Origin: an uncultured delta proteobacterium
GTDB lineage: Bacteria > Desulfobacterota > Binatia > JACPRU01
NCBI GenBank assembly: GCA_963745025.1
Contig: CAVUWD010000006.1
Location: 320,001 to 384,000 of the forward strand
Direction of reading: 5' to 3'
Length of the DNA stretch: 64,000 bases
The notes under the pieces are model-generated. The model was not told the DNA's origin. It ran no database searches and was given only the letters and a program-made list of their open reading frames with translations. A program made the translations under genes and the position numbers. Every line of letters starts with the position of its first letter. Position 1 is the stretch's first letter. Shown here piece by piece: positions 2,198 through 46,708 of the stretch.

Positions 2198-3343
2198 TCA
2201 GAAGGCCGCAAGACCGATCAGGTTGCGGCCGATGATCAGCTTCTGGATTTCGGACGTGCCGTCGGGAATCGTCATCATCCGCGCGTTGCGAAAATGCAGC
2301 TCGACCGGGAGCTCGCGGCTGAGTCCGTACGCGCCGTGGACCTCGATCGCACGCGAGGCGATTCGCACCGCGGCTTCGGTCGCGTAATACTTCGCCATCG
2401 AGGTTTGGGTGTCGCAGCGGATCCCCTTCTGCACCAGATGGAGTCCGCGGAGCATGAGCAGCCGCGCGGCATCGAGCTCGGTCGCCATGTCTGCAATCAG
2501 CTCCTGAACGAGCTGATGTCCGCCGATCTTCTTGCCCCATTGCTCCCGCCCCTTCACGTAAACAAGCGACGCGTCGAGCGCCGCGCGTGCGATGCCGGTG
2601 GCGATCGCGGCGACGAAGCAGCGCGCCCGCTCGAAGAGCTGGAGCGTGCTGCGCAGCCCGACCCCGGGCTCGCCGAGGCGCCGGCCGACCGGCACGAACA
2701 CGTCGTCGAACACGAGCTCCGCCGTCGACCAGTCGTTCAGCCCGAGCTTCGGAAGCTCGCGCGAGCGGTAACCGTCATCGCGCTCGACCACCATCTGAGA
2801 AAGCCCTTCCGACTCGTCCTCACCCCGTACCACCACTACCGCGAGGTCGGAGATGCCGGCGTTCGAGATCCACGTCTTCTCGCCACGAACGCGCCATCCA
2901 TCGCCGTCTCGTACGGCCCGCGTCCGTACCTTCCGCACGTTCGAGCCGACTCCCGGCTCGGTGATCGCCGAGCAGCCGATCAACTCCCCGGCGAGGAGCC
3001 GCGGCAGCCAGCGCCGCTTCTGCTCCGGAGACCCGAGCATGCCGATCGCGAGCGCCACGCCCTCGTTGATGAACGCCGTTCCGGCGATTCCGGGCGAGAT
3101 GCGGGCGAGCTCCTCGTAGAGAAGACCGCTCGTCACGAGGTCGAGCGCGAGGCCACCGTCGTTCTCGCCGAGCCAGCCGGTCCCAACGCCGTAAGGCGCC
3201 AGCTTTCGCAATAGCGTGTGAGCGAGGTCCTTCGGGATGGTGGCGTCGCGCCAGGGCTCCACGGCCGGCGCGATCTCCGTCTCCACGAAGCGCCGGAACG
3301 CGCCGAGCGCAATCGACTGTTCCTCGCTGAGATCGAAGTCCAT
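2198..3343 (-). CDS. acyl-CoA dehydrogenase
   Basis: AITEPGVGS, GEKTWISN, IEVHGAYG and IPDGTSEIQ motifs. Confidence 0.93.
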   Translation of the reverse strand: MDFDLSEEQSIALGAFRRFVETEIAPAVEPWRDATIPKDLAHTLLRKLAPYGVGTGWLGENDGGLALDLVTSGLLYEELARISPGIAGTAFINEGVALAIGMLGSPEQKRRWLPRLLAGELIGCSAITEPGVGSNVRKVRTRAVRDGDGWRVRGEKTWISNAGISDLAVVVVRGEDESEGLSQMVVERDDGYRSRELPKLGLNDWSTAELVFDDVFVPVGRRLGEPGVGLRSTLQLFERARCFVAAIATGIARAALDASLVYVKGREQWGKKIGGHQLVQELIADMATELDAARLLMLRGLHLVQKGIRCDTQTSMAKYYATEAAVRIASRAIEVHGAYGLSRELPVELHFRNARMMTIPDGTSEIQKLIIGRNLIGLAAF

Positions 3344-3396
3344 CCGACACCCCTCTCCTCGCCAGCGTTACGACCCGCGAGCCGCCAGTCAAGCGA

Positions 3397-3416
3397 TGTG
3401 CGGCGATCTTGCCAAC
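3397..3416 (-). promoter_or_regulatory. possible sigma54 -24/-12 promoter for the acyl-CoA dehydrogenase
   Basis: minus strand TGGCAAGATCGCCGCA has GG-N10-GC spacing about 60 nt upstream of ATG3343; -12 half is imperfect. Confidence 0.3.
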
Positions 3417-3506
3417 GGGCGACCCGATTCTCACGCGGGATTGCCACAACCGGCATCCAGGAGGAAGATGCGTGCAAGACGACGACGCCGCGCCGTAAGG
3501 AGGGAC

Positions 3507-4571
3507 ATGAGCATGCGCATCGATCGATCGGAGTGGGGCATCCGTCTCTCGGACCGCGTTCGCGCGGCGCTCTCGGCGGGCGACATCGAAGTCGCACGCC
3601 GACTCGTCGCCGAGGGCGACGGCATGGCGAGAAGCCTCGAGAAGGAATACTCGCTGATGGTCAAGGGCCTCGGCATCACGATCCGGATCCTACTGGATCT
3701 GCTGGAGGAGGCGGCAGGACGGCTCGCGAACGACGAGGCTCGGCGGAGTCTCGCCGAGGTGCTGTGGCGTTTCTGTAGGGACATGACGAGGCTCGTGTCC
3801 CCGGCGGAGGGCAGCGAGCCGAACGCGCAGGACAGGGCCGCGGGAGTGGCGGGCGCGCTCGCACGGACGCGGCTGCTGCTCGCGGAGTCCGAAGCGCGAT
3901 TCGACCACGAGCAGAAACAGCTCGCGGGACAGATCCTCGAAGCCCTGGATCGGCGTGACGGCAACGCCGCTCTTGAACTCAGCGACCGCAAGGAGCGCCT
4001 TGAGTTCGTGCCGCTCCACGATCGCTTGGTCCGCTTCATGGCCGAGGTGTGGGGCTACGTGCTCGAGCGTTTGGGGGCCGAAGAGCTCGGCCGCTTCCAC
4101 CTCGCGACCGCCGAGGCGCAGCGCCGCGGCTTCGAAGCCTGGGAGCGCCTCTCGCCGGCGGAGTTCGCACGGGCCACGGCCTTTCTTGCGCGCCAGCACA
4201 TGGGAGACATGGCGATCACGGAGTACGAGGACAAGTTCCAGTTCGAGTTCTCGCCCTGCGGCAGCGGCGGCCGCCTTCGCCGCGACGGCGCCTACGAAGG
4301 ATCGAGCCCGCTGCCTTACGTTGAGAAGTCGGGCGCGCTGACGTTCGGCAAAGGCAAGCTACCGGTCTATTGTTCCCACTGTCCGATGTGGAACTCGGTG
4401 GCGGCCACCGCGTGGTTCGGACATCCGCAATGGGTGTTCGACGATCCCGCGCGCGCGGACGGGTCGTGTACGATGAGCATCTACAAGCATCCCGAGAGCA
4501 TACCTGCCGAGTACTTTCGGCGCCTGGGTCTTGCCGTGCCCGCGGCCACGCCCCGACCTGGGCAGCGCTGA
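3507..4571 (+). CDS. hypothetical protein with Cys/His metal-binding motifs (PCGSGG, YCSHC, distal C)
   Basis: AAGGAGG RBS before ATG3507; 354-aa ORF with good codon usage, divergent from the ACAD gene; family not named with confidence. Confidence 0.8.
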   Translation: MSMRIDRSEWGIRLSDRVRAALSAGDIEVARRLVAEGDGMARSLEKEYSLMVKGLGITIRILLDLLEEAAGRLANDEARRSLAEVLWRFCRDMTRLVSPAEGSEPNAQDRAAGVAGALARTRLLLAESEARFDHEQKQLAGQILEALDRRDGNAALELSDRKERLEFVPLHDRLVRFMAEVWGYVLERLGAEELGRFHLATAEAQRRGFEAWERLSPAEFARATAFLARQHMGDMAITEYEDKFQFEFSPCGSGGRLRRDGAYEGSSPLPYVEKSGALTFGKGKLPVYCSHCPMWNSVAATAWFGHPQWVFDDPARADGSCTMSIYKHPESIPAEYFRRLGLAVPAATPRPGQR

Positions 4572-4695
4572 TGCAACGGACCGTAAACGGACCGTAGGAT
4601 GAAGAAGTCTCCTCCGCGCGCCGACTCGGCGCCCCGGCCGGAAACACCAGGGGCGTGTTCGGTGGGATGGCCGCGAGACTTTCGCGCGGCGCCAC

Positions 4696-4905
4696 CTATC
4701 TGGACGCCGTAACCCCGACGAAGGAGTAGAAGCTCTCGCCGGGGATCCGCGCCCTGCGCTTTACGTCCGCGAACCCCGCCTCCTTCATCTGCGCGACCAT
4801 TTCCCCGGGCGTAGGCAGTCTCCCGCAACCCGCGGTCATCGCACCCCATAGGTTTAGGATGTCGGTGACAGCGCCTCGTCGTTTGCAGGCGCGGGCGGTC
4901 AGGCG
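4696..4905 (-). pseudogene. C-terminal remnant of a class I SAM-dependent methyltransferase
   Basis: startless frame reads ...AVTDILNLWGAMTAGCGRLPTPGEMVAQMKEAGFADVKRRARIPGESFYSFVG...*, the typical final helix-strand-strand (xxxAGFxxV) of methyltransferases. Confidence 0.5.
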
Positions 4906-4936
4906 GCAGCCGGCTCCCCGGCGGGAGGTGAGCGCG

Positions 4937-5341
4937 TCACGCGGACTCGCCTCGGGTGAGTGCGCGCGCGGTCTCCACGATCGCCTGCAGCGTGGAACCC
5001 GGTGGAAAGGTCGCGACGCCGCGCTCGGCGAGCTTGCGGCAGGCGTGCGGCGCGAGCGTTCCGCCCGCGATCACCGGGGCATCGATGCCCGCTGCGCGCA
5101 GCGCGTCGAGGATGCGCTCGGCGACCTCGACCCGGCCCCCGACGTTCAGGCCGACCAAGTCGACGTCCTCGTCGGCGGCCGCCCGGACGATCTCCTCGAC
5201 GCTCGCCATGCCGGCGAAGATGACCTCGAATCCCGCGTTGCGCAGCGCCTGGGCGACCGCGAGAGGCCCCCGCCAATGGCCATCGAGGCTCGTCTTGGCC
5301 AACAGAACCCTGCGAGCCGGCGCCGCAAGCTCTCCCTTCAT
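4937..5341 (-). CDS. cobalamin-binding small subunit of an acyl-CoA mutase
   Basis: LLAKTSLDGHWRG (DxHxxG B12 motif), AGFEVI and VIAGG; ATGA overlap with the large subunit. Confidence 0.9.
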   Translation of the reverse strand: MKGELAAPARRVLLAKTSLDGHWRGPLAVAQALRNAGFEVIFAGMASVEEIVRAAADEDVDLVGLNVGGRVEVAERILDALRAAGIDAPVIAGGTLAPHACRKLAERGVATFPPGSTLQAIVETARALTRGESA

Positions 5342-6957
5342 ACGTTGACGGGCACTTTCCAAGCCCCGAAGACGTCGCGGAAAACCGCCCCGACTTCACC
5401 GAGGGTTACCTCGGCATCGAGCACCTCGAGCATGGAGGGCATGACGTTCTCCTCGGGGTCGCGGCAGGCCCGCTCGAGGCGTCGGATGGCGTCGCGGGCT
5501 CGCCGGGCATCGCGCGTGCGGCGCACGGCCTCGAGGCGTTCGAGCGATCGCTCGTAGACGTTGTCGACCGGGCGAAACCCCTCGACCTCGAGCGCACCGA
5601 CGTCGGCATCGAAGCAATTGACACCGACGATCTTCCGCTCGCCGCGCTCGATCCTGCGGCTGTCTTCGAGCTGGTTGGTGATCGCCCGCTGGTGGAGCCA
5701 CCCCGAGTCGAGCGTGGCGATGAATCCACCGTGCGCCTCGATCTCGCCGACGAACTCCCAGGCGCGACGTTCGATCTCGGCGGTGAGCGCCTCGACGAAA
5801 TAGGAGCCGCCGAGCGGATCGGCGACGGCGGTCAGGTTCGTCTCGTTCTGCAGGATCTGCTGGATGCGCACGGACATCTGATGGGCGTGCTCCGAGGGGA
5901 TCGAGATCGCTTCGTCATAGCCCGAGACGCCGAGCGACTGGACTCCGCCGAGCACGGCGGCGAACGCCATCAGCGTGCCTCGCACGACGTTGTTCAGCGG
6001 CTGCGGGTAGGTCATGGCCGTTCCCGCGGTGACGACGTGAATCCGCAAGCGCAGGGCCTGCGGATCGTCAACGCCGTAGCGCTCGCGAAGGAGGTCGTGC
6101 CACATCTTGCGCGCGGCGCGAAGCTTGGCGATGTCCTCGAAGAGATCCATGGAGACGCGGAAGCTCACTCCCCCCACGGCGTGTGCGACCGCCGCCATCT
6201 CGAGCCGCCCGCGCTGCCGGACGAGATCGAGGTACTCGATGGCGTTGGCGAGCAGTGCACCGAGCTCTTGCCACGCGTTGAGCCCGGTATCGGCGCCGTT
6301 GTAGGCGGCGATCGATACCGGCACCCAGCGCGGCACCTCGGCGGCGCAGAACTCGATGAGATCGCGGTTCAGGCGCAAGCCTGCGCGCGCCGGAATCTGT
6401 TCCTTCGGGAAGCAGCCGAGATAGGTGAGGAAGTAGTCGCTCTGGCCCGTGCCGGAGAGGTTCCTCAGGTCGAGACCGCGGCGTCGCGCGATCGTCCAAT
6501 AGGCCGCGTTGGCGTAGGGCGCGTGCTGCACGACGCCGCCGCCGCTGTGCGCGTAGTAGGCCGCTTGATCGATGCGGTCGAGAGCGATGTGGTAATCGCG
6601 AACGTGGAGGAGCACCGCTCCGGTGAGGCCGACGTCCTCGCGCCGCGCGACGACCTCCGGGTGATCGACGTCGTAGAGGTGATCGGCCGTCATGCGATCG
6701 TGCTCCATGATGAAGCCGGTCTCGCCGTGCTCGAGCAGGAACCGGATGCGCTCGTTTTCGTCTTCCGGGTTGCCGTAGCCCGAGAGCTGGAAGATCCGCC
6801 ACGGGCGGCTGCGGTACATCTCCGGATACGCTCCGCGAAGAAACGGCGCCTGCCCGGGACGGGAGTCCGCCGCGTCGCGCTGCGGCGCGGGAACGTCGGC
6901 CGGACCGTAAACCGGCCGGATGGGGATCCCCGAGGCCGTGTACCGCTCGCCACTCAC
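5338..6957 (-). CDS. methylmalonyl-CoA mutase family large (substrate-binding) subunit, atypical specificity residues
   Basis: YTASGIPI, PFLRGAYPEMY, IAKLRAARKMW, QPLNNVVR, LGGVQSL, DPLGGSYFVE and VGVN motifs; GTG start. Confidence 0.93.
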   Translation of the reverse strand: MSGERYTASGIPIRPVYGPADVPAPQRDAADSRPGQAPFLRGAYPEMYRSRPWRIFQLSGYGNPEDENERIRFLLEHGETGFIMEHDRMTADHLYDVDHPEVVARREDVGLTGAVLLHVRDYHIALDRIDQAAYYAHSGGGVVQHAPYANAAYWTIARRRGLDLRNLSGTGQSDYFLTYLGCFPKEQIPARAGLRLNRDLIEFCAAEVPRWVPVSIAAYNGADTGLNAWQELGALLANAIEYLDLVRQRGRLEMAAVAHAVGGVSFRVSMDLFEDIAKLRAARKMWHDLLRERYGVDDPQALRLRIHVVTAGTAMTYPQPLNNVVRGTLMAFAAVLGGVQSLGVSGYDEAISIPSEHAHQMSVRIQQILQNETNLTAVADPLGGSYFVEALTAEIERRAWEFVGEIEAHGGFIATLDSGWLHQRAITNQLEDSRRIERGERKIVGVNCFDADVGALEVEGFRPVDNVYERSLERLEAVRRTRDARRARDAIRRLERACRDPEENVMPSMLEVLDAEVTLGEVGAVFRDVFGAWKVPVNV

Positions 6958-7182
6958 CGCACGGCCTCTCCGGCTGGCTCGCCGAAGCGCTCGGACACGG
7001 TCACTGCACGACCTCCGCGGTTTTCAAGATTGCTTCGCATGATAACCCACCGGGCTTTCCGTCTGGCTAGTCTAGCGATCGACGGGGAGATTCCTTCTCT
7101 CTGCCCCCTCGCTTGTCAAGCAAAATTCCCAGGCCACTTTGTGACCCGCACCCGATCAGTTTTCACACGACGCTCGAGGAGA

Positions 7183-7351
7183 CGGACGCGGTCGGTTGTG
7201 GTCGGCCCGTACTCGGGTCGATCACAATCGACCGCGTCCGCGCGGAGCGCGGAAGACATAACCCTCGACACTGGTCTATTGTCTTCCGCGCTTGCGCGCG
7301 GTGGCTGGATTTTCCGGTCGACCCGGATCCGGGCCGACCGGAAAGTCCAGC
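7183..7351. repeat. three tandem long hairpins, the outer two sharing an inverted 24-nt core
   Basis: 27-bp stem 7183-7209/7214-7240; 13-bp stem 7246-7258/7280-7292; 48-nt near-palindrome 7304-7351; shared core GGTCG(G/A)CCCG-N4-CGGG(T/C)CGA(T/C)C. Confidence 0.8.
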
Positions 7352-7617
7352 GCTTCCGGATCTCGAGCGCCGGAGGCGAAGACTGAGGCATCCCAGGCCA
7401 CTAGCCGCGAGGGCGGCCTGCCCCGGGCAGGCTGCCCGGCACTCAGCCACACGGGCAGCAGCTCGCCCTCGTACTCCATCCCCCGGCACGAGACCGCCAG
7501 AATCCACCGCGCCGTTCCATGAAGACGTGCCGATACATTCTCGAGCACGCGTGAAACTCGGGAACGATCACGTGGAGTGTGGCCTCCCGCGCGTCACCGC
7601 CTGCCGCGGTCATCGGG

Positions 7618-8091
7618 TCATCGAGCCTCGAACTTCATCCTCGTCTTCTGGGCCCAGCTCTCGCCGTCGGGGAGGAAGTAATCGAAACTCACCCGCCGCG
7701 CCTTGAACTTCCACTGGCCGTCGACGCGGACGAACTCGTCGTCGTACCGGCCGGCTGCGGTGAAGCCCTTCCCCTCCGTGGTGATCAATTTCACCTCGAA
7801 ATAGCATCCACCGTCGCCACGGTCGCCCGCGAGCCGGATCACGTGGTTGTGCACGTAGTGACGCATTTCGGTGAAGTTCGCGGGGAGGTACTCGCAGTAG
7901 AATTGGCGGATCTGGTCGATCCCGTGAAAGAGGCCGATCGGCCCGAAGTCCGCCACGGCGTCGTTCGAGTAGAGCGCCGCGCACTCTGCGAGCTTTCCCT
8001 GGTCGACGTGGTAGCTGTAGAGGTGACGAAGCTCCTTGATCGCCTCCCGGTCCTCGGTCTCGCGCATCCGACTTTCCATGTCTCTGGACAT
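7618..8091 (-). CDS. NTF2/SnoaL-like protein (BaiE/LinA-type dehydratase-like)
   Basis: EDREAIKELxxxYxxxxD, RHYVHN and GRYDDEFVRVDGQWKF; AGGAG RBS. Confidence 0.88.
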   Translation of the reverse strand: MSRDMESRMRETEDREAIKELRHLYSYHVDQGKLAECAALYSNDAVADFGPIGLFHGIDQIRQFYCEYLPANFTEMRHYVHNHVIRLAGDRGDGGCYFEVKLITTEGKGFTAAGRYDDEFVRVDGQWKFKARRVSFDYFLPDGESWAQKTRMKFEAR

Positions 8092-8295
8092 TGCCGTTTC
8101 TCCTCTTGATGGATGTAAGACTCTTCGCCGTTCGCCGCCGCGGCGCTCAGACCTTCTCGACCGTACCCAGAGCCCGCCATCGAGGCATCCGAAGGCGCCT
8201 CTCGGTCGTGCGCGAACGCGTGCCGAGCTGCTACTGGCAAGTGCCAGTGCCCCGGTGCAGACTTCGCAGTGACCTCTCTTCGCGCACCCCCCCTC

Positions 8296-10266
8296 TCACA
8301 CGATTCGGCCAACTTGCGCACCTTCGTAAATCGCGTTCTCCATCCGCCGCGGGGCCACACAGTCGCCGACCCGGTGGAGCTCCGCGATCTTTCCTCGGAG
8401 CGAGCGGTAGAGACCGTCATCCGCCGCGGCTCCGACGGCGAGGACGACGGCGTCGCACCCGATCTCGCCCTCTTTCTGGCTGAGGAGATGTCGCGTCTTC
8501 ACCCCGCCCGCGTCGATCTCCGTCACGGCGGTGAAGCTCACGATCTCGACGCCCTTCTCCGCGAGGCGGGTCATGAGGAGCATCCACGTGTTGTGCTCCG
8601 CGACGGCATGCGGAGCGGGACCGAGGGCCGGGACTACGAGCGTGACCTGCTTGCCCCGGTCGGCCAACGTGTCGGCCGTCGTCGCCCCGCGGAGATGGGA
8701 ATCGGCGCTGTAGACGACCACGCGATCGCCGAGGCTCGCGCCGTCTCCGAGAACCTGCTCCGCGAGGAAGACGTTTCCCCCATCGGCGCCCTGGATCGTC
8801 GGGAGCGGTGGCGGGGGTTGGTCCACTGGGCGCGCGCCGGTGGCGACGACGACCGCGTCCGGATGCTGACTCACGACGGCGTCCACGTCGACCTCGGTGC
8901 CGAGACGGACGTCGACGCCGAGGCGCCGGAGCTCGCGCGTGTAGTAGCGGCCAACGTCCTGGAGCTCTTCGCGACCGGAAGCCTTGCGGGCGACGCTCAA
9001 TTGTCCGCCGAGTTCCGTGGCGCGATCGTACAAGCGCACGGCGTGACCGCGGAGCGCTGCCACGCGCGCCGCCTCCGCGCCGCCCGGTCCGCCGCCGACG
9101 ACGATCACGGACTTGCGCTTCTTCGCCGGGATGAGCTGCCACGCCGGATCGCTCTCATGACCGGCCAATGGGTTGAGTGCGCAGCCGATCGGCAGGCCTT
9201 GCATCGCCCGCCCCCAGCATCCCTGGTTGCACGCGACGCAGTTCCGGATCTCGTCCTCCCTGCCCTCCCGTGCCTTGCGGGGAAGATCGGGATCGCAGAT
9301 CGTCGGGCGCGTCATCGCCACCATGTCAGCCTGGCCGTTTCGGAGAATCTCCTCCGCCTGTGCGGGGTCCTTGATGCGGTGGATCGCAAAGACCGGGACG
9401 TCGACGACCTCCTTGATCGCCGCGGCGTATGGCACGGCGAACCCGAGCGGCACGTACATCGGCGCGATGATGAGCGGCAGCGAGCCGTACGCTCCGACGC
9501 TCACGTCGAGGAAATCCACTCGGCCCTGGTCCTGAAGGATCCGCGCGATCTCGCGCGTCTCCTCGAGCGTGAGCCCGCCGGGCACGAGCTCATCGGCGCT
9601 AAACTTGAAGCCGAGCACGAAGTCCTCGCCGACCGCCTTTCGCACGGCGGCGATGACCTCGAGCGAAAAGCGCATCCGGTTCTCGAGCGTGCCGCCATAC
9701 TCGTCGGTCCGGAAGTTCGACGCGGGCGACAGGAACGAGGAGAAGAGGTAGCCGTGCGCGCCGTGAAGCTCGATGCCGTCGAAGCCCCCTTCGCGGCACC
9801 GGACGGCGGCGGCCGCGAACTCCCCGACGGTCCGCTCGATGTCCTCGCGCTCCATCTCCTTCGAGGCCTCGCCGAGAAGCGGGCAGGGCGCAGTCGAGGC
9901 GGCTTGGAGAGGCAACATGCTCGCACTGGCCGAGCCCTGGCGGCCGAAGTGCCAGAGCTGCGCGAAGATCTTCGTGTCGTGGCGGTGGACAGCGTCGGTT
10001 ACCCAGCGATAGCAGGGAATCTGGCGGTCATCGACACAGCGGTCCATGTGGGCGGACACCGGCACCGAATACGGGCTGACGACCTGCGCGCCGGTGATGA
10101 TGAGCCCGATTCCGCCGCGCGCGCGTGCCTCGTAATAAGCGGCGTGCCGCTCGGTCATCAAGCCGTCGTCGTCTGCGAACAACGTGGCGTGCGCGCTGCT
10201 GAAGATACGGTTCGGGACGCTGAGGGCTCCGATTTCGAGGGGGCGAAAGAGGAACTCGTAGGACAT
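8296..10266 (-). CDS. NADH:flavin oxidoreductase (OYE domain + [4Fe-4S] + FAD/NAD domain; FadH/BaiCD/TMADH-like)
   Basis: GFDGIELHGAHGYL, NFRTDEYGG, CVACNQGC..C, VVGGGPGG and GDCVAPR motifs. Confidence 0.93.
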   Translation of the reverse strand: MSYEFLFRPLEIGALSVPNRIFSSAHATLFADDDGLMTERHAAYYEARARGGIGLIITGAQVVSPYSVPVSAHMDRCVDDRQIPCYRWVTDAVHRHDTKIFAQLWHFGRQGSASASMLPLQAASTAPCPLLGEASKEMEREDIERTVGEFAAAAVRCREGGFDGIELHGAHGYLFSSFLSPASNFRTDEYGGTLENRMRFSLEVIAAVRKAVGEDFVLGFKFSADELVPGGLTLEETREIARILQDQGRVDFLDVSVGAYGSLPLIIAPMYVPLGFAVPYAAAIKEVVDVPVFAIHRIKDPAQAEEILRNGQADMVAMTRPTICDPDLPRKAREGREDEIRNCVACNQGCWGRAMQGLPIGCALNPLAGHESDPAWQLIPAKKRKSVIVVGGGPGGAEAARVAALRGHAVRLYDRATELGGQLSVARKASGREELQDVGRYYTRELRRLGVDVRLGTEVDVDAVVSQHPDAVVVATGARPVDQPPPPLPTIQGADGGNVFLAEQVLGDGASLGDRVVVYSADSHLRGATTADTLADRGKQVTLVVPALGPAPHAVAEHNTWMLLMTRLAEKGVEIVSFTAVTEIDAGGVKTRHLLSQKEGEIGCDAVVLAVGAAADDGLYRSLRGKIAELHRVGDCVAPRRMENAIYEGAQVGRIV

Positions 10267-10296
10267 AGATTACCTCCCGTTCTTCTGGAACTACGG

Positions 10297-21972: not shown

Positions 21973-23229
21973 TCACCTCGCGTCTGCTTTCGCCGTGAAC
22001 CGCACCGGCATGTGCTTGATGCCGGACTGGAAGTTCGATTGCAGACGCTCGATCCGGCCGTCGAGCTCGATGTCGGGGAGCCGCCAGAGAAGCTCTTCGA
22101 AGAAGACGCGCATCTCGAGCCGGCCGAGGAAGGCGCCGAGGCAGAAGTGCGGCCCGATACCGAAGGAGAGATGATCGTTCGGCGATCGCGCCGCATCGAA
22201 CTTCCCCGGCTCGGAAAACACGCTCTCGTCGTGATTCGCCGAGGCATAGTAGACGACGACCTTGTCGCCGGCGCGGATCCGCACGCCATGAAGCTCTGTG
22301 TCTGCGGTGGCGGTGCGGCGAAAGCACATCACCGGGCTCGCGAACCGCAGCATCTCCTCGATCGCACTCGGCAGCAACGAGCGATCGGAGAGCAGCCGCT
22401 CGCGGCTGCGCGGGTGCTCGATGAGCGCGAGCATGCCGCCGGGAATGGCATTGCGTAGCGTCTCGTTTCCGGCCACCGCGAGGAGGAAGAAGAAGTTCTC
22501 GAATTCTTCGTCGCTGACCTTCTCGCCGTCGGCGTCGCTCAGCAAGAGCATGGTGAGGATGTCCTCGCCGGGACGGCGCCGCTTCTCTGCGGCCAGCGCG
22601 TGCGCGTAGTCGAACATGTCGGCGAGCGCACCCCGCGAGCGCGGGTCGATCGGTCTCCCCTGCGCGTCGTACCGCGCGTACTCCGGGTCCTGAAAGCCGA
22701 TCACCCGGTTGGCCCAGTGAAAGAGCAGATGGCGGTCGTCGCCGGGCACTCCCATCACGTCCGCGAGCGCCGAGACCGGCAGGTCGGCCGAAAGATCCTG
22801 GGAAAAATCGCAGCGCCCGAGCGGCGCGACGCGCTCCACTGCGGCGCGGGCGCGGGCGCGGATCCCTGCCTCCAGGCGAGCGACGTTGCGCGGCGTGAAG
22901 GCCTTGCTGACGATCCGGCGCAGCCGCGAATGCGCGGGCGGGTCGAGATTCAGCATCATCTTCCGCTGGAAGTCGAGATCCTCGGGCTTCGGGTCGCGAA
23001 TCTGCGTCGCGCCGAGATGAGAGGAGAAGAGCTCCGGATTGCGGTTGACGCGCTCGACGTCCGCGTAGCGGGTGATCGCCCAGTAGCCGCGCCCGGCCGG
23101 CCAGTCGAGGATCGCATGCTCCTCCTGCCAATAGACCGGGCACTCTCGCCGCAGGCGGGCGAAGGCCTCGAGCGGCAATCCCGCGAGGTAGGTGCGCGGA
23201 TCGTAGAGGTCGACCCCGAGATCCATCAC
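21973..23229 (-). CDS. cytochrome P450 (CYP124/125/142-like appearance)
   Basis: LDPPxH, AGNET I-helix, EMLR and FGIGPHFCLG heme motif; overlaps the paaK stop. Confidence 0.93.
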   Translation of the reverse strand: MMDLGVDLYDPRTYLAGLPLEAFARLRRECPVYWQEEHAILDWPAGRGYWAITRYADVERVNRNPELFSSHLGATQIRDPKPEDLDFQRKMMLNLDPPAHSRLRRIVSKAFTPRNVARLEAGIRARARAAVERVAPLGRCDFSQDLSADLPVSALADVMGVPGDDRHLLFHWANRVIGFQDPEYARYDAQGRPIDPRSRGALADMFDYAHALAAEKRRRPGEDILTMLLLSDADGEKVSDEEFENFFFLLAVAGNETLRNAIPGGMLALIEHPRSRERLLSDRSLLPSAIEEMLRFASPVMCFRRTATADTELHGVRIRAGDKVVVYYASANHDESVFSEPGKFDAARSPNDHLSFGIGPHFCLGAFLGRLEMRVFFEELLWRLPDIELDGRIERLQSNFQSGIKHMPVRFTAKADAR

Positions 23230-24536
23230 CGCGGTCGTCGATCGTAGACGCGCTGGGCCTTACCGAGCGAGCGCTCGACACCCCCCTCCGAGCGAATCTC
23301 CACGTCGACCGTGACGCCGATCCGCGACTTGATCTTGCCCGCGAGCACGCGTGCGCTCTCCTCGCGGTCCTCCGTGCCCGAGCCTGGCCGGCCCTCGCCG
23401 ACGACGCGGATCTCGTCGAGCGTCCGGGGCCGACTGATCTCGAGAAAGAAATGCCCGGTGAGGCCGGGATCCTCGAGGATCATCTCCTCGATCTGCGTGG
23501 GAAAGAGGTTCACGCCGCGGACGATCACCATGTCGTCGCTGCGCGCGTGGATGCGGGCGATGCGCCGGAAGGATCGCGCGGTGCCGGGTAGCAGGCGGGA
23601 GAGATCGCGCGTGCGGTAGCGGACGACGGGCAGCGCCTCCTTCGTGAGCGAGGTAAAGACGAGCTCGCCGGGCTCTCCGTCGGCGCGCGGCGCGCCCGTG
23701 TCCGGGTCGACGATCTCCGGATAGAAGTGGTCCTCCCAGACGTGCGGGCCGTCCTTGGTTTCGAGACATTCGCTGGCGACGCCCGGGCCGATCACTTCGG
23801 ATAGTCCGTAGAGGTCCACCGCATCGATCGCGAAGCGGTCCTCGATCTCGCGCCGCATGGGCTCGCTCCAGGGCTCGGCTCCGTGAATACCGACGGAGAG
23901 GGAGGAGTCCCGCGGATCTATGCCTTGGCGATCGAACTCGTCGGCGATCGCCAACATGTAGCTCGGCGTGACCATGATGATCCGCGGGCGAAGGTCCCGA
24001 ATCAGCTGGACCTGCCGCTCGGTCATGCCCCCCGAGGCCGGGACGACCGTGCAGCCGAGGCGCTCGGCGCCGTAGTGGACGCCCAGGCCTCCGGTGAAGA
24101 GCCCATACCCGAACGCGACGTGGACGAGATCGCCGGGCATGCCGCCCGAGGCACGAAGCGAGCGAGCGCAGACGTCTGCCCAGGTGTCGAGATCCTTCTG
24201 CGTGTAGCCGACGATCGTGGGCTTGCCGGTGGTGCCGCTCGAAGCGTGAATCCGAGCGACGCGCTCCCGCGGCACCGCGAACATGCCGAACGGGTAGGTC
24301 TCGCGGAGATCGTCCTTGGTGGTGAAGGGAAAACGGGCGAGGTCGGCGAAGTCCCGCAGGTCGCCGGGGTGCACACCGGCGGCGTCGAACGTTTCACGAT
24401 AGCGAGGGACGTTGTCGTACGCGTGCGCGAGGGTCCAGCGCAGCCGCTCGAGCTGGAGAGCGCGGATCTCGTCGATCGAGGCGCGCTCGATCGGCTCGAG
24501 CGCGTGACGTTCAGGCGGCCGCGCGCGCGTCTTCAC
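23226..24536 (-). CDS. paaK: phenylacetate-CoA ligase
   Basis: YPFGMFAVP, HASSGTTGKP, GYGLFTGGLG, YGLSEVIGPGV and RGVNLFPTQIE motifs. Confidence 0.93.
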   Translation of the reverse strand: MKTRARPPERHALEPIERASIDEIRALQLERLRWTLAHAYDNVPRYRETFDAAGVHPGDLRDFADLARFPFTTKDDLRETYPFGMFAVPRERVARIHASSGTTGKPTIVGYTQKDLDTWADVCARSLRASGGMPGDLVHVAFGYGLFTGGLGVHYGAERLGCTVVPASGGMTERQVQLIRDLRPRIIMVTPSYMLAIADEFDRQGIDPRDSSLSVGIHGAEPWSEPMRREIEDRFAIDAVDLYGLSEVIGPGVASECLETKDGPHVWEDHFYPEIVDPDTGAPRADGEPGELVFTSLTKEALPVVRYRTRDLSRLLPGTARSFRRIARIHARSDDMVIVRGVNLFPTQIEEMILEDPGLTGHFFLEISRPRTLDEIRVVGEGRPGSGTEDREESARVLAGKIKSRIGVTVDVEIRSEGGVERSLGKAQRVYDRRPR

Positions 24537-24565
24537 GATCCTGCCGCGTGTCCTGTCCGTCTCGA

Positions 24566-25342
24566 CTACCAGCGTGCGCCCGGAAACACGCGGGCAACGC
24601 TCTGCATCTCGGAGAGCATCCGTCCGAGCGCCTCACCATGCCGACCGTCACGCCCGCCTCGCTGCATCCACGCCGGGTCTTTCGGCCCCTCCAGCCCGGC
24701 TTCGGCGAAGGTCTTGAGAACTTCCTCCCGCCACGGCGCGCGCAGCACCTCGGGATCGAAGACCACGCGCGCCTCGACGAGACGGCGCACGAGATCGTCG
24801 GTCTCGAAGAGCTCTCCGGTGAAGATCCACAGCTCGCCCAGCGCCGCCTGCATCCGGCGGCGGCTCTCGTCGGTGCCGCCGCCGAGGCGGAGCAGCCACT
24901 CCCGACTGTGTCGCAGGTGATAGGCCGCCTCCCTCGCGGCCCGCACGGCGAACGACGCGAGCGGCCGATCGCCCGAGGCCTCGAGCGCCACGGACAGGTG
25001 GAGGTCGAACGCATCGAACAAATACTGTCGGGCGATCGTGAAGGCGAAGTCGCCGTTCGGCTGCTCGACGAGAAGGAGATTGCGAAACTCCGTGACGTCG
25101 CGGAAGAACGCGAGGTCGTCGGCCGACCGACCGCGGCCCTCGAGGCGACCGGCGGACTCGAGCAGCAGGCTCGCCTGATCGAGCAAGTCGAGCGCGAGAT
25201 TGCCGAGCGCGAGCTCCTCTTCGAGCACGGGAGCGTGACCGCACCACTCGGACAGGCGATGGCCGAGCACGAGGCGATCGTCGCCGAGGCGTAGCGAGTA
25301 TTCGGCGAGATCCCTCTGCAAGCGATTCTCGCTCGTCATCAA
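24566..25342 (-). CDS. paaC: phenylacetyl-CoA epoxidase subunit C
   Basis: LGDDxLVLGHRLSEWCGHAPxLEE, LVEQPNGDFA and RLGGGTDES motifs; ends PGARW. Confidence 0.92.
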   Translation of the reverse strand: MMTSENRLQRDLAEYSLRLGDDRLVLGHRLSEWCGHAPVLEEELALGNLALDLLDQASLLLESAGRLEGRGRSADDLAFFRDVTEFRNLLLVEQPNGDFAFTIARQYLFDAFDLHLSVALEASGDRPLASFAVRAAREAAYHLRHSREWLLRLGGGTDESRRRMQAALGELWIFTGELFETDDLVRRLVEARVVFDPEVLRAPWREEVLKTFAEAGLEGPKDPAWMQRGGRDGRHGEALGRMLSEMQSVARVFPGARW

Positions 25343-35704: not shown

Positions 35705-38125
35705 TCAAGGCTCGTCGATGAGCCCGGCGCGACGGGCGGCGGCGAGCGCAGCGATCGCGTCGACGCGCCGGATCACCGCTCGAAGCTCGCCGGCAAAGCT
35801 CGTCCGCCGCTCCGCGAGATCCGCAAGGCCTGCTTCGAGCAAGCCGCGATTTCGCGCCAGCCGGAGCGCGGCCGCGAACAGAACCTTCGAGACCGATTCC
35901 CCACTCTGAATCCGCCGCTGCAGCTGATATTGCTTGCCGCGCGCCAGGCATCTGGCAAAGAAAGCGGCCTCATCGAACACGGCCCCCGTGTCGAGTCGCT
36001 CGAGCTCGTCGCTAACGACCCGGTAGGCTTCGAGGAAGGGGCGCAGCACGCGGTGGGCGGTGAACGGGCGCGACCGGCGGACGAGCGCCTCGATCCCGGC
36101 CGCGCCGGCTCCGAGACCCGCCTCCCACCCCTCGTCGCGCAGGATCAGCTCGCGCCGAATCTCGTCGCGGAATCCGTCCTTGTCCGCGAAGAAGAACTCG
36201 AACTTGAGAAGGTCGCGCAGCCGCAAGGCCTCCGCCCAAAACTCGCCCGTCCGATCGGCGACGCCGCCCTCGGCGGCGCGCAGCAACGCGAGCTCCGTGA
36301 TCGCCGAGCTCACGAAGAAGTGAACGATCGTATTGCGGTAGTAGGCGGCCGTCAGATGCTGGTCGTCGCCGATCGCGTAGATCGGCTCGGGGCCCTCGGC
36401 GAAGGTCGAGACGACACCGCTCGCGACCAGCACCTCGAGCGCGCGGCGGACTCCCTCGGCGGTGTCGAGCATGAGCTCTTCGGTCTTGGGCAGGTTCCGG
36501 CGGCGCACGTAGTCGATCCAGTTGCGAAGCACCGTCACCGTCTCCTCGACGGTGAGCGCACGGTCGGCGCCGAGCAGTGCCAGCGTCACCAGCGACGTCG
36601 GCGTGATCGGCGTCACCCGGTTGATGCGGACGGCGACCTCGAAGGCGATCTTGGCCACCGCCACACTCTGCTCGTCCGCGTCCAAATCGACGCTCGGCTC
36701 GCGCTCGCCGAGCGCGCCGGCGAGCGACAGCGGCTCGCCGAAGCGAATGTGGATGTTGCCGAGGCGGCCCTGCAGGCCGCGTACGAACTTGACGAACCAG
36801 CCGAAGCCCTCGCGCTGCTTGGCTGCGCCGCGGCTCTCGGCGACGTAGTCGCCGACGTCCTGGATCTGGTCGTAGGCAATCGCCGTCGGAATCAGGTACA
36901 CGTCCTCGCTGCAGCCGCGGCGCAGCGAGTCGATCACGTAGGCGAGAAGGCCGAGCCGAGGTGGCAGCAGCTTTCCCGAACGCGAGCGGCCGCCTTCGAC
37001 GTACCACTCGAGCGAGAAGCGCTTCTCGATCAGGTAGTCGACGTACTGCCGGAGCACGAGCTTGTAGACCGCGTTGTCCTTGAAAGTGCGCCGGATGAAG
37101 AACGTGCCGCTGCGGCGAACGAGCGGGCCGACGGGAAAGAAGTTCATGTTGATGCCGCCGGCGGTATGGTTCGGCGGATGCCCGTTTTCGTGGAGCGCAT
37201 ACTGCAGCACGAGGTGATCGAGGTTCGACTTGTGGGTAGGGAGAAAGACGACCGGGGATCGCTGCGCCAGCGCGTAGATCTCACGGAGCTCGCCCCGATC
37301 GTAGTGAAGACGCTCTCCGTAGCCGCGGGTGTAGAGCAGGCGGATCAGATTGGCGGTGAGATCGATGACGTAAGGACTGTGCGTGGCCGCGATCTCGCGC
37401 AGATAGCGTGCCGCCCGTTTGGTGACCTGGACTTCGGGCTTGCCGAGCGTCCGAGCGAGCATGGCGACGCCCCCGCGAAATGCCGGCCGCGCGAGGATCT
37501 CTTCGTGAACGAAGCGCGGCACCTTGTAGCGCGAGCCGCGTAAGCGCCGCTCGGCCCGCTCGAGCGCGAGCTGCGCCTGGCGGACGACGAACTCGGCGAG
37601 ACTCTGGGTGGAGTCCGCTCCCGCCCGGCTCCAACGCGCGCGCAGCGCGGTGGCCGGCGCCGGCTCGGCGATCACGACCCGATACCGGTCAGGGTCTCGG
37701 CGCACGAGCCAGACCTGCCGAAAAACGCCCGGGTCGCGAGGATCGCCGACTGTCAGCAGATCGGAGAAGCGGACTTCGCGGACCCCGTCCTTCTCCGGCG
37801 GCAGCCACGCCACGCGGAGCGGTGCGAGTATCGGATCGTCCCCCACCGCCAGGTTCGCCTCGAGTTGCGGATCGAGCTTTCGGGCGCGCCGCCGGCGGCG
37901 CGAGGGTGGGATGCCGATCCTCTCGCAGCTCGTGGGGCTCAGCCCCTCCGGACGATGGCTCTCGATCCAGCGCTCGAGGATCCGCCGCTCGATCGCGCTC
38001 GAGGCGTCGAGGAGAAAGACGAGACGCCTGCCCGGAACGAACGGCCACGCCTGCTCGGCCGGCGCCGGCGCAGCCGGAGCCTCGCTCCTCGGCGACTCCA
38101 ACCCGTGTAGGCCCCCGATCTGCAT
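35705..38125 (-). CDS. plsB: glycerol-3-phosphate 1-O-acyltransferase
   Basis: THKSNLD (HxxxxD), GGINMNFFP, FFIRR and YVEGGRSRSGKLLPP motifs; start uncertain. Confidence 0.88.
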   Translation of the reverse strand: MQIGGLHGLESPRSEAPAAPAPAEQAWPFVPGRRLVFLLDASSAIERRILERWIESHRPEGLSPTSCERIGIPPSRRRRRARKLDPQLEANLAVGDDPILAPLRVAWLPPEKDGVREVRFSDLLTVGDPRDPGVFRQVWLVRRDPDRYRVVIAEPAPATALRARWSRAGADSTQSLAEFVVRQAQLALERAERRLRGSRYKVPRFVHEEILARPAFRGGVAMLARTLGKPEVQVTKRAARYLREIAATHSPYVIDLTANLIRLLYTRGYGERLHYDRGELREIYALAQRSPVVFLPTHKSNLDHLVLQYALHENGHPPNHTAGGINMNFFPVGPLVRRSGTFFIRRTFKDNAVYKLVLRQYVDYLIEKRFSLEWYVEGGRSRSGKLLPPRLGLLAYVIDSLRRGCSEDVYLIPTAIAYDQIQDVGDYVAESRGAAKQREGFGWFVKFVRGLQGRLGNIHIRFGEPLSLAGALGEREPSVDLDADEQSVAVAKIAFEVAVRINRVTPITPTSLVTLALLGADRALTVEETVTVLRNWIDYVRRRNLPKTEELMLDTAEGVRRALEVLVASGVVSTFAEGPEPIYAIGDDQHLTAAYYRNTIVHFFVSSAITELALLRAAEGGVADRTGEFWAEALRLRDLLKFEFFFADKDGFRDEIRRELILRDEGWEAGLGAGAAGIEALVRRSRPFTAHRVLRPFLEAYRVVSDELERLDTGAVFDEAAFFARCLARGKQYQLQRRIQSGESVSKVLFAAALRLARNRGLLEAGLADLAERRTSFAGELRAVIRRVDAIAALAAARRAGLIDEP

Positions 38126-38149
38126 ATGACCGTCTACGGGATAAACCAG

Positions 38150-38300
38150 GCGCGAAGCGTCGCGCAACCGCTGGAGACCGAGAGTCGTCCGAGGGAGTCG
38201 ACGCGGTCGCGGCGCAGTGCGGGTTTGCCAGCGCAGGGGCCATGCGCCGCGCCTTCTTGCGGACGTTGCGGGCGCCGCGCCGAACGCATGCCGCATTCGC
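38150..38300 (+). pseudogene. C-terminal remnant of an AraC/GlxA-type regulator
   Basis: ...SSEGVDAVAAQCGFASAGAMRRAFLRTLRAP matches the second HTH of GlxA-family regulators; no upstream domain. Confidence 0.55.
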
Positions 38301-38374
38301 TTCCGCTCGGCGTGAAGGGCCGTAAACGGCGAGGTGCGTTCCTGCGGAACCGGAGCGTCACGGGACGCGAAGCG

Positions 38375-39082
38375 CTAACCCAGCTCCTCTCCGACCGCTT
38401 CGCGGAGGGCGCGCCGGGCGATCCGCGTCACGAGCATGGCGACGAGCAGCGTGGCTGCCAATCCGATGCCGAGGACCGTGTAGTAGCCTGTGCCGCGCCC
38501 CGCCGATTGCCCGGCGCCGAGCGCGGCGACGTCGCCTGCGATCTTTCCGTAGTACACGTAAAGGATCGTGCCTGGGATCATGCCGAACGAGGCGAGCGCA
38601 TAGTCCGCGAGCCGCACCCGCGTCAGGCCGAGCGCGTAGTTGAGAAGCGTGAACGGGAATGCGGGCGAGAGCCGGAGCAAGAACACGATCCGCAGCCCCT
38701 GCGCTCCGACCGCGCGATCGATCGCGGCAAAGCGAGGGTTGCCGGCGAGCCGCCTCTCGATCGCGCCGCGAGCGAAGTAGCGCGCGACCAGGAATGCGCC
38801 GATCGAGCCAGCGACGGCAGCGATAAAGACGTAGACCGTGCCGCGTAGGAGCCCGAAGATCGCGCCGGCGGCCAACGTGAAGAGCACCGCAGGCGCCAGC
38901 GCGATGACGGCGACCGCGTAGCCGAGGATGAAGACGATCGGTCCCCATGCTCCTAGTGCGTCGACCCATGCCGCGAACGCAGGCACGTAGCCGCCCGCGC
39001 CCCGTCCGAGCATCGCGAGGACCGCGATCGCCGCGACCGCGACGAGCCCGCGGGCGGCCGTCGACCGGCTCAAGGATGCCAC
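38375..39082 (-). CDS. TVP38/TMEM64 (DedA-like) membrane protein
   Basis: TLAAGAIFG, LLRLSPAFPFTLLNYALGLT and GMIPGT motifs. Confidence 0.9.
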   Translation of the reverse strand: MASLSRSTAARGLVAVAAIAVLAMLGRGAGGYVPAFAAWVDALGAWGPIVFILGYAVAVIALAPAVLFTLAAGAIFGLLRGTVYVFIAAVAGSIGAFLVARYFARGAIERRLAGNPRFAAIDRAVGAQGLRIVFLLRLSPAFPFTLLNYALGLTRVRLADYALASFGMIPGTILYVYYGKIAGDVAALGAGQSAGRGTGYYTVLGIGLAATLLVAMLVTRIARRALREAVGEELG

Positions 39083-39154
39083 GGGCTGCCGAGAAGATGG
39101 CGCGGCTCGAGGATCGGCGTCGACTTGCCGAGCCAGTAGCCGGTCACCGTCTTC

Positions 39155-42184: not shown

Positions 42185-42200
42185 GGTCGGCGTCTCGATT

Positions 42201-44120
<1,920 letters not shown>

Positions 44121-44127
<7 letters not shown>

Positions 44128-44423
44128 TTGAGCAAGCTCAACTCGTCTGCGTTGACCGTGGCTCGGTTCCGGAACGAGGCGAGGATGATCGCCAGTCCGA
44201 CTGCCGCCTCGGCAGCCGCGACGGTCATGACGAAGAACACGATCACCTGGCCGTCCATCGAGCCGAGATGGCGGGCGAGCGCGACGAACGCCAGGTTCGC
44301 GGCGTTCAGCATCAGCTCGATCGACATGAAGATGACGATCACGTTCCGCCGCAGCACCACGCCGACCGCGCCGATGGCGAACAGCACCCCCGCGAGCATG
44401 AGATAGTATTCGACGGGCACCAT
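44121..44423 (-). CDS. nuoK: NADH-quinone oxidoreductase subunit K
   Basis: [20 protein letters not shown] and [12 protein letters not shown] motifs. Confidence 0.95.
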
Positions 44424-44427
44424 CTCG

Positions 44428-44940
<513 letters not shown>

Positions 44941-44941
44941 G

Positions 44942-46068: not shown

Positions 46069-46094
46069 CCCGTCCGTCTCGCCCGTGTCCTACG

Positions 46095-46574: not shown

Positions 46575-46619
46575 CGTGTGCTCGGCTATCGGTCTTCGGT
46601 CTTCGTTCTTCGGCGCCAC

Positions 46620-46708
46620 GGTGAAACGAGCGCAGACAATTTTTTCGCCTCCACACCGGTCGGATTCATCGGCGGCCATCCGGAGAAGTTGTCTGACCCC
46701 GTTTCACC
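46620..46708. repeat. REP-like inverted repeat pair between nuoD and nuoE
   Basis: GGTGAAACGAGCGCAGACAATTTT (+, 46620) and GGTGAAACGGGGTCAGACAACTTC (-, 46708); preceded by short TCTTCGG-like repeats. Confidence 0.55.

Follow-up and report, generated by a model that had tools for sequence, protein, structure and literature searches.

Which CoA-bound acid is rearranged by a B12-dependent mutase whose substrate pocket matches none of the studied enzymes? This question is raised by two adjoining genes at 4937-6957 in a 64-kb stretch of DNA (the window) from an uncultured delta proteobacterium. We used the large subunit, P0001 (window 5338-6957, minus strand), as the query, together with its small-subunit partner P0002 (translated 4937-5362, minus strand). 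On balance, we think it probable that the two form a functional split adenosylcobalamin (AdoCbl)-dependent acyl-CoA mutase of an uncharacterised clade, with a substrate outside the known set, and we favour a branched polar acyl-CoA. The features of the pair are as follows.

5338-6957, minus strand: acyl-CoA mutase large subunit, substrate-binding TIM barrel, 539 aa; PF01642, TIGR00641; GTG start
4937-5341, minus strand: B12-binding small subunit, 134 aa from the ATG at 5341; PF02310, TIGR00640; motifs DGHWRG, GLNVGGR and IAGGT
5338-5341, minus strand: ATGA overlap of the large-subunit TGA and the small-subunit ATG ('...GTC AAC GTA TGA AGG GAG')
6958-7617, minus strand: spacer of ~660 bp between a SnoaL-like gene and the mutase, no called gene; presumed promoter/5' leader of the mutase

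The gene pair and its rebuilt pocket

Both reading frames are intact, and the ATGA overlap implies translational coupling of the large- and small-subunit genes. The span 4937-6957 marked by an earlier note on this DNA matches them exactly, from the stop of the small subunit to the start of the large one. An in-frame TTG at 5362 would give a small subunit of 141 aa; the ATG at 5341 (134 aa), coupled to the large subunit, is the most likely start judging from the sequence. The large-subunit GTG at 6957 has GGAGAG just 5' of it and fits as a start because homologues measure 534-547 aa. GC content in the window is high (0.61-0.69). No Rfam family, cobalamin riboswitch included, was matched across the whole 64-kb window, and no sigma-70 consensus promoter was found in 4400-7700; two terminator-like matches fall within genes.

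P0001 matched PF01642 (MM_CoA_mutase) with E 5e-141, residues 7-531 aligning to positions 2-512 of the 512-position profile, and P0002 matched PF02310 (B12-binding) with E 3e-18, both far beyond chance. Generic NCBIfam domain models were passed (TIGR00641, 391 bits with a cut-off of 304; TIGR00640, 80.7 with a cut-off of 57.45), while the query fell far below the equivalog cut-offs for methylmalonyl-CoA mutase (MCM; NF006944, 341 bits vs 876) and IcmF (NF045497, 116 vs 1500). In HMMER alignments the closest solved structure to P0001 was HcmA (4r3u_A, E 7e-97), and the human and P. shermanii MCMs aligned with E 1.5e-67 and 1.6e-59. P0002 aligned to 2yxb (E 1e-22) and HcmB (4r3u_C, E 4e-17). We found a full-length TIM-barrel domain in the large subunit and the DxHxxG histidine ligand and GG in the B12 domain. 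SxL is also part of the B12-binding fingerprint definition, and P0002 lacks it: its loop reads GLNV--GG vs GVSLLSG in HcmB and GVSILNG in 2yxb, with Ser changed to Asn and two residues deleted. DxHxxG (the His-on ligand), a Lys upstream of it and GG were kept. The motifs DGHWRG and GLNVGGR, picked out by an earlier note on this DNA, were both read in translated 4937-5362 (minus strand). They recur among relatives of the pair: in 79 of 80 genome loci of the family a small-subunit open reading frame (ORF) follows the large one, with DGHWRG in 73 of these 79 small subunits and G-x-N-[IVL]-[GC]-G in 70.

We compared the large-subunit pocket using HMMER alignments and a MAFFT L-INS-i alignment with references from annotated plasmids: HcmA of Methylibium petroleiphilum and Xaut_5021 of Xanthobacter autotrophicus for 2-hydroxyisobutyryl-CoA mutase (HCM), the ELW1 ibc-cluster mutase, Xaut_5043, and ScpA of Sinorhizobium americanum (beside mce) for MCM. 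The segments WRIFQLSGY, GQSDYFLTYLGCFPKEQ and SIAAYN named by the earlier note are present in translated 5338-6957 (minus strand, 539 aa), where GTGQSDYFLTYLGCFPKEQ was read together with WRIFQLSGY and SIAAYN. The canonical residues are not merely offset, as the segments stand in register in both alignments, anchored in P0001 by W53, Q57, G60, D87, G169-T170, Q172, D174, S215-I216 and Y219. The comparison gave the following.

MCM reference ScpA, segments: WTIRQYAGF / VAFDLAT / SISGYH
HcmA, segments: WTMRQIAGF / STDFDMPT / GTVQADILKEYMAQKEYIYP / NISGYH
Query, segments: WRIFQLSGY / IMEHDRMT / GTGQSDYFLTYLGCFPKEQIP / SIAAYN
Tyr89 site: Tyr in MCM, Ile in HCM, Leu in Xaut_5043, Leu58 in the query
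Arg of WTxRQ: Arg in MCM, HCM and Xaut_5043; Phe56 in the query, with Arg54 two positions earlier
HcmA Asp117 segment: AFDL in MCM, DFDM in HCM, LPCC in Xaut_5043, Glu85-His86-Asp87-Arg88 in the query
Arg207/Gln208 site: Arg in MCM, Gln in HCM, not assigned in Xaut_5043, Cys182 (or Pro184) in the query
His244 site: His in MCM, HCM and Xaut_5043; Asn220 in the query
Gln of HCQT: Gln in MCM, HCM and Xaut_5043; Val309 in the query

The equivalent of Arg207/Gln208 is Cys182 or Pro184 depending on gap placement, and neither is basic. We take Tyr89 and Arg207 of MCM to bind the substrate carboxylate and His244 to polarise the thioester and aid catalysis; Arg87 of MCM, which corresponds to the Phe56 position, presumably also has a part in carboxylate or thioester binding. 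Asp117 of HcmA, with which Glu85 aligns, we take to be its hydroxyl-binding residue. The earlier note had described a joint loss of Arg87, Tyr89, Arg207 and His244. All four are indeed replaced, but the change of His244 to Asn is not unique to this clade: seven or more other 50%-identity cluster representatives have it too, as does a paralogue of the same genome on contig C13 (pocket WTRRPITGF/SISGYN).

To follow these residues through the family we used a word-indexed search; of 8000 candidates scored, 5156 proteins matched at E<=0.001. The top 120 of these matches were all of ~540 aa (534-547) and had generic names only, such as 'methylmalonyl-CoA mutase family protein'. Aligned with the query (121 sequences), they were 64-99% identical to it (median 66%), with 113 of 539 columns invariant. 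R54, F56, Q57, L58, S59, E85, D87, R88, C182, A217, Y219 and N220 were found in 121/121 and H86 in 120/121. The core residues common to all references were likewise invariant (Gln172, Asp174, Tyr219, His307, Asn322-Asn323 and Arg326), as were Asp348-Glu349-Ala350 and Asp380-Pro381. Invariant pocket substitutions amid 64-99% overall identity indicate purifying selection on a defined pocket.

The same invariance bears on the substrate. The 'bulky, uncharged acyl group' proposed by the earlier note was not borne out as an established property, since these segments gain Arg54, Glu85 and Arg88 (121/121) and His86 (120/121). It is no less likely that the substrate bears a hydroxy, oxo or amino group or a relocated carboxylate than that it is bulky and uncharged. 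Because two Arg are lost but two invariant Arg, a Glu and a His are gained, we favour a polar branched acyl-CoA over a purely hydrophobic one.

Separation from known mutases

In an exhaustive search of 50%-identity representatives, identity to the query dropped steeply, to 60%, 51%, 44% and 41% and then to 40% or less. Among these representatives (P0123-P0272) nearly each cluster had its own combination of residues at the Tyr89, Arg207 and His244 sites; a rebuilt pocket is thus common in the dark part of the superfamily, and pocket diversity among uncharacterised mutases is very large.

We built a tree (IQ-TREE 'quick', LG+G4, SH-aLRT only, support from the 'quick' mode being less reliable) from 69 rows: the query, 9 family members, 45 representatives of 500-720 aa (shorter and longer ones left out), 9 paralogues from the same genome and 5 references, with no characterised ICM (isobutyryl-CoA mutase), IcmF, ECM (ethylmalonyl-CoA mutase) or RCM sequences among them. 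The family grouped with P0123 (SH-aLRT 100), then with P0124/P0125 (100) and P0128/P0131 (99). HCM references formed their own clade (100) away from the query, ScpA grouped with the genome's two canonical-looking paralogues, and Xaut_5043 paired with the genome's paralogue C16:478593 (100). The references shared 33-35% identity with the query, and the genome's other mutases 30-38%. The clade that holds the pair is discrete and strongly supported, and it stands apart from the reference MCM, HCM and pivalyl-CoA mutase (PCM) and from the nine own paralogues.

HcmAB of Aquincola tertiaricarbonis (PDB 4r3u) resembles the pair in its split large/small layout, its small-subunit type and an acidic residue at the same site (Asp117 in HcmA, Glu85 in the query). 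HCM operons, with copies on the Methylibium petroleiphilum PM1 plasmid RPME01 and at Xaut_5018-5021 of Xanthobacter autotrophicus, run hcmB-ligase-meaB-hcmA; likewise, a CoA ligase lies beside most relatives of the query and MeaB beside many. HcmA differs from the query in its clade, at 34-35% identity, and in several pocket residues: Ile90 corresponds to Leu58, Gln208 to Cys182 or Pro184, the His of ISGYH to Asn220 and DFDM to EHDR, and the Arg of WTMRQ is moved two positions (WRIFQ). HcmB differs from the query small subunit, which has the shortened SxL loop. An assignment as HCM/RCM was rejected on Leu58, Glu85 and Cys182 vs Ile90, Asp117 and Gln208, and on the lack of clustering with HcmA; RCM presumably has Val at the Asp117 site.

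Xaut_5043/5044, with the MeaB-like Xaut_5042, was reportedly described as a pivalyl-CoA/isovaleryl-CoA mutase by Kitanishi, Cracan and Banerjee in 2015. The statement of the earlier note that PCM has Leu at the Tyr89 site agrees with Xaut_5043, which we take to be a PCM. Xaut_5043 also shares with the query a 'QSDY' segment and a loop one residue longer after it, and its two subunits are split, with MeaB and TetR beside them. It differs in being 33% identical and not sister to the query, and in WTQRQ, LLPCC and GQH vs WRIFQ, MEHDR and AYN. We rejected an assignment as PCM, since the query has no more than Leu58 and QSDY in common with Xaut_5043, lacks LLPCC and GQH, and is not its sister in the tree.

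MCM (P. shermanii 1req, human 2xij and ScpA of Sinorhizobium americanum) is alike in fold and cofactor domains, and its core motifs are kept in the query (Gln197, Tyr243, NNxxR, DEA, DPxGGS). It differs in that Tyr89 is replaced by Leu, Arg207 by Cys/Pro, His244 by Asn and Arg87 by Phe, and no epimerase lies near the query. Assignment as MCM (EC 5.4.99.2) was rejected on Leu58, Cys182 (or Pro184) and Asn220 and on the NF006944 score. Assignment as ICM/IcmF was rejected by signature and model scores alone: Leu58 and Cys182 stand where ICM, we assume, has Phe (Tyr89 site) and Gln (Arg207 site), and the NF045497 score is given above.

The earlier note's view of an uncharacterised mutase subclass therefore holds: signature residues, model scores or tree position set the query apart from MCM, ICM, HCM and PCM, and it belongs to a conserved clade with no specific annotation in the best 120 matches and no paper found. 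Full-text searching of the literature gave no paper on this mutase family or its gene cluster. The family is not treated in the available portions of PMC2847961, PMC11599936, PMC8360864, PMC7888143 and PMC12746152. Two of these describe other mutases: an engineered lactyl-CoA mutase that is an Hcm variant (PMC11599936), and IaaGH of Aromatoleum, a phenylsuccinyl/benzylmalonyl-CoA mutase (PMC8360864).

Distribution, neighbourhoods and the host genome

A pattern scan of 185,579 species genomes gave 284 stretches, 218 of which encode a relative of the query. The best 80 of the 218 were 63-69% identical and came from Gammaproteobacteria (Steroidobacteraceae, Halieaceae, Woeseiaceae), Acidimicrobiia and other Actinomycetota, Chloroflexota and Alphaproteobacteria; one was from an isolate, Acidithrix ferrooxidans PY-F3 (L081). 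We found 72 additional family loci in metagenomes. In PLSDB plasmids 421 records matched, all below 39% identity, and no family member was found on a plasmid.

For the neighbourhoods we used these 152 loci (the best 80 genome loci and the 72 metagenome loci), with de novo ORF clustering in the 80 genome loci followed by Pfam. Neighbours within 10 kb were counted in 82 of the 152 loci, those in which the mutase is full-length and flanked on each side by 5 kb or more.

Acyl-CoA ligase (either of two types): 63/82 loci
TetR (TetR_C_24 type): 43/82 loci
MeaB: 38/82 loci
Enoyl-CoA hydratase: 36/82 loci
Iron-dependent alcohol dehydrogenase (Fe-ADH): 32/82 loci
TonB-dependent receptor: 28/82 loci
Short-chain dehydrogenase/reductase (SDR): 28/82 loci
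Cytochrome P450: 25/82 loci
Metallo-beta-lactamase (MBL)-fold protein (lactonase-like, weak): 20/82 loci
Luciferase-like monooxygenase: 15/82 loci
None of the 16 tested cluster representatives: 15/82 loci

Two arrangements were found. Type A (32 loci, Gammaproteobacteria) has the order TonB receptor, MBL, P450, hydratase, SDR, mutase large and small subunits, MeaB, Fe-ADH, ligase and TetR, then acyl-CoA dehydrogenase (ACAD), thiolase and FadB. In type B (30 loci, Actinomycetota and Chloroflexota) the mutase subunits are followed by the ligase at a median distance of 466 bp, with a nitroreductase-family gene in 16/30 and TetR in 12/30. MeaB was present in 32/32 type-A loci vs 4/30 type-B loci. 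Four Acidimicrobiia loci of type B (L037, L049, L054, L063) add a P450, and all except L037 also a luciferase-like monooxygenase. The type-B nitroreductase-family gene (L010:14592-15239 and 15 more loci) gave a weak, partial BluB match (63.5 bits vs a cut-off of 150). None of ten cluster representatives reached an NCBIfam equivalog cut-off, and we therefore leave the cluster's pathway unnamed. The oxygenase, lactonase-like, Fe-ADH and ligase neighbours would fit an oxygenase-initiated catabolic route ending in beta-oxidation.

The surroundings of the pair in the window are of another kind, as listed here.

7618-8295, minus strand: SnoaL_4 protein, upstream of the mutase, same strand
8296-10269, minus strand: old yellow enzyme (OYE) plus FAD/NAD(P) flavoprotein, 2,4-dienoyl-CoA-reductase-like, directly preceding the SnoaL_4 gene
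~10.5-12.4 kb, plus strand: two electron transfer flavoprotein (ETF) genes
3237-4571, plus strand: 449-aa ORF without Pfam match, coding-type third-position GC content (GC3) of 0.81, convergent on the mutase pair

An NMO-like gene comes after the ETF genes, and the flanks of the pair further hold acyl-CoA dehydrogenases and an SDR. As conserved partners, the window's SnoaL_4, OYE-like, ETF, NMO-like, DSBA-like, hydrolase, PhaC and TetR genes were rejected, being found in 0/80 genome loci; its SDR and ACAD gave only paralogue-level matches of 30-39% identity. Only one of the 72 metagenome loci shared window neighbours, a contig of the same species (L096, 98% identity), which was also the only one of the 152 loci with the ORF at 3237-4571. 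The CoA-ester redox neighbourhood (SnoaL_4, OYE-like, ETF, NMO-like) is specific to this species. The earlier note had remarked that no MeaB or epimerase is adjacent to the pair, and this is correct for the window; the lack of an adjacent MeaB is probably a local accident, with MeaB within 10 kb in 38/82 loci and three MeaB genes in other parts of this genome, of which two adjoin other mutase paralogues.

The host genome of 5.6 Mb has ten PF01642 genes (contigs C11, C13, C16 and C19). The paralogue C11:70231 has the MCM signature (Tyr/Arg), C19:83577 the ICM signature (Phe/Gln), and C16:478593 is PCM-like and lies beside a MeaB. C11:31617 (WLMRTYSGH, fused B12 domain, 30% identical to the query) appears Ecm-like. 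Other non-canonical pockets included WIQRELSGEG/FVEDTYY, found twice on C16, and FVVSAYSGFG/TVCVNH on C19 beside MeaB; C16:360447-361991 and C16:666969-668504 are among the paralogue loci. Seven tested paralogues all pass only the generic TIGR00641 domain model. When the usual partners were looked for elsewhere in this genome, a single suggestive pairing came up, an SDR (48% identity) beside a nitroreductase-family gene (42%) at C18:25822-27312.

A pmoA/amoA-family gene (PF02461, E 2e-110) was found at C2:26833-27528 (L173). Together with the many mutases, it hints at branched or short hydrocarbon metabolism in this genome. The window also has a P450 (21973-23259, minus strand) overlapping the end of a PaaK-type AMP-binding ligase (23226-24632, minus strand), 15-17 kb from the mutase; this P450 is only 29-31% identical to the family-clustered P450s and no link is claimed. 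At 38000-46700 we observed a strong AT skew (+0.2 to +0.28) with complex-I/Mrp-type subunits on the minus strand (NADHdh, Proton_antipo_M, Proton_antipo_N); in some long ORFs there, the Pfam match is confined to the initial 35-45 residues, and frames may be broken or mis-called.

Weighing the substrate and the role of the pair

We read the pair as an active mutase because its coupled genes are intact, its cofactor and core motifs are kept, its rebuilt pocket is invariant, and a chaperone, a ligase and a repressor stand beside its relatives. Catalytic activity, reaction type and substrate class are what we infer from this; the pair probably rearranges a CoA-bound acid handled by no studied mutase. 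Several points weigh against it. The activity and reaction type of the clade are argued from homology, and residues 54, 56, 58, 85-88, 182 and 220 are placed in the pocket lining by alignment, not coordinates. Asn220 at the His244 site, Val309 in place of the HCQT Gln and the shortened SxL loop could each reflect a change in the chemistry or in how the cofactor is handled. The window copy is an orphan, with no ligase, MeaB or other usual partner adjacent. No orthologue of the query was found at E<=1e-150 in 40 relatives, among them a genome from the same genus (82% complete) and six genomes from the same family (65-84% complete). The clustered Fe-ADH has no orthologue found in this genome, and the best ligase matches are only 30-40% identical. 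The local copy may be recently or laterally acquired, or a stranded, decaying pathway remnant. As a sign of transcription, RNA-library contigs are weak, since contaminating DNA is possible: contigs 97-100% identical to both mutase genes came from three RNA libraries of sediment (under three study codes, perhaps from a single campaign), with one of 338 nt and 8 differences crossing the subunit junction at 5165-5502 (X16) and others extending upstream to 7027 (X16) and 7055 (X19), and stretches without such contigs (5576-6642 and others) carry no information. A sediment metagenome DNA contig (2144 nt, 39 differences) covers 4956-7099.

Could the pocket instead serve a bulky, purely hydrophobic acyl group (quaternary alkyl, alicyclic or aryl-alkyl), making the enzyme PCM-like for a larger hydrocarbon acid? 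We consider this unlikely. The Leu, the 'QSDY' segment and the loop length common to Xaut_5043 (taken as a PCM) suggest it, as do the loss of Arg207 and Arg87 and the gain of Phe56, Phe/Tyr175 and Phe176, the P450s and luciferase-like monooxygenases that recur near relatives, as for hydrocarbon-like precursors, and the pmoA-family gene in this genome. However, the same segments hold invariant Glu85, His86, Arg88 and Arg54, and buried charges would not be expected if the site were purely hydrophobic. The HcmA residue aligned with Glu85 is Asp117, taken as its hydroxyl-binding residue. In the tree the PCM reference is not the sister of this clade; it retains the His244 equivalent and reads 'LLPCC' where the family has 'MEHDR'.

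That the pair is isofunctional with a known mutase (MCM, ICM, HCM/RCM, ECM or PCM) and merely divergent in sequence would agree with the generic database names, with HcmA as closest solved relative and with the HCM-like operon logic of ligase, MeaB and mutase in relatives. We regard it as very unlikely, given that the signature residues of each reference are absent, both equivalog scores lie far below cut-off, the clade is separate (for ICM and ECM the case is signatures and model scores only) and MCM-, ICM- and PCM-type paralogues are already present in this genome. A non-catalytic or degenerate paralogue, for example a protein with a B12-binding or regulatory role, comparable to the inactive MutA-type MCM subunit, would account for the lost His244, the altered SxL loop and Val309, for the orphan placement and for the absence from the 40 relatives at E<=1e-150. 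It seems extremely improbable for a protein conserved at 64-99% identity across phyla with invariant pocket and core motifs, an intact B12 ligand motif, MeaB and a dedicated ligase conserved beside relatives, and both ORFs intact and coupled.

Under the favoured reading of an active mutase for a branched polar acyl-CoA, the small subunit would bind AdoCbl base-off/His-on through the His of DGHWRG, and substrate binding in the large-subunit TIM barrel would trigger Co-C homolysis. The 5'-deoxyadenosyl radical would take H from the methyl or methylene carbon adjoining the thioester-bearing carbon, -CO-SCoA would move to the adjacent carbon (a 1,2-shift), and H would be given back. The predicted substrate is not methylmalonyl-, isobutyryl-, 2-hydroxyisobutyryl- or pivalyl-CoA; it would be a branched acyl-CoA whose alpha-carbon is tertiary or quaternary and also bears a hydroxy, oxo, amino or more distant carboxylate group. 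Invariant Glu85/His86/Arg88/Arg54 may read this polar group, with room for alkyl bulk provided by Leu58, Phe56, Cys182 and Tyr/Phe175-Phe176. In most relatives, the neighbouring dedicated acyl-CoA ligase would activate the acid and the product would pass to beta-oxidation-type enzymes. In this genome, the lone pair would depend on genes at other sites for a MeaB chaperone and for CoA activation.

A wider proposal, which we hold to be quite unlikely as it stands, is that, in aerobic Gammaproteobacteria, Acidimicrobiia and Chloroflexota, the clade is the missing enzyme that linearises the gem-dimethyl/quaternary-carbon acids remaining once the rings of alicyclic terpenoid-type compounds have been opened. 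The compounds would be camphor-, cineole- or ionone-like, cleaved by an oxygenase and a lactonase. If so, the P450, the luciferase-type (Baeyer-Villiger-like) monooxygenases, the MBL lactonase-like protein, the omega-hydroxy-acid-type Fe-ADH and the CoA ligase would feed the mutase, which would make the polar branched acyl-CoA beta-oxidisable.

To our knowledge, whenever a new specificity was assigned to an acyl-CoA mutase (ethylmalonyl-, 2-hydroxyisobutyryl-, pivalyl-CoA), this opened up a branched-carbon pathway and provided a metabolic-engineering tool. The window copy is the least informative member of its clade, an orphan pair lacking the usual partners, and its worth lies in drawing attention to the family. 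The clade itself is well placed for substrate assignment: it is large, spans freshwater, marine-sediment and soil lineages, and has an invariant pocket, a recurring catabolic cluster (dedicated ligase, TetR repressor, MeaB, oxygenases) and at least one cultured carrier, Acidithrix ferrooxidans PY-F3. Its size, pocket, cluster and cultured carrier make the substrate question directly testable.

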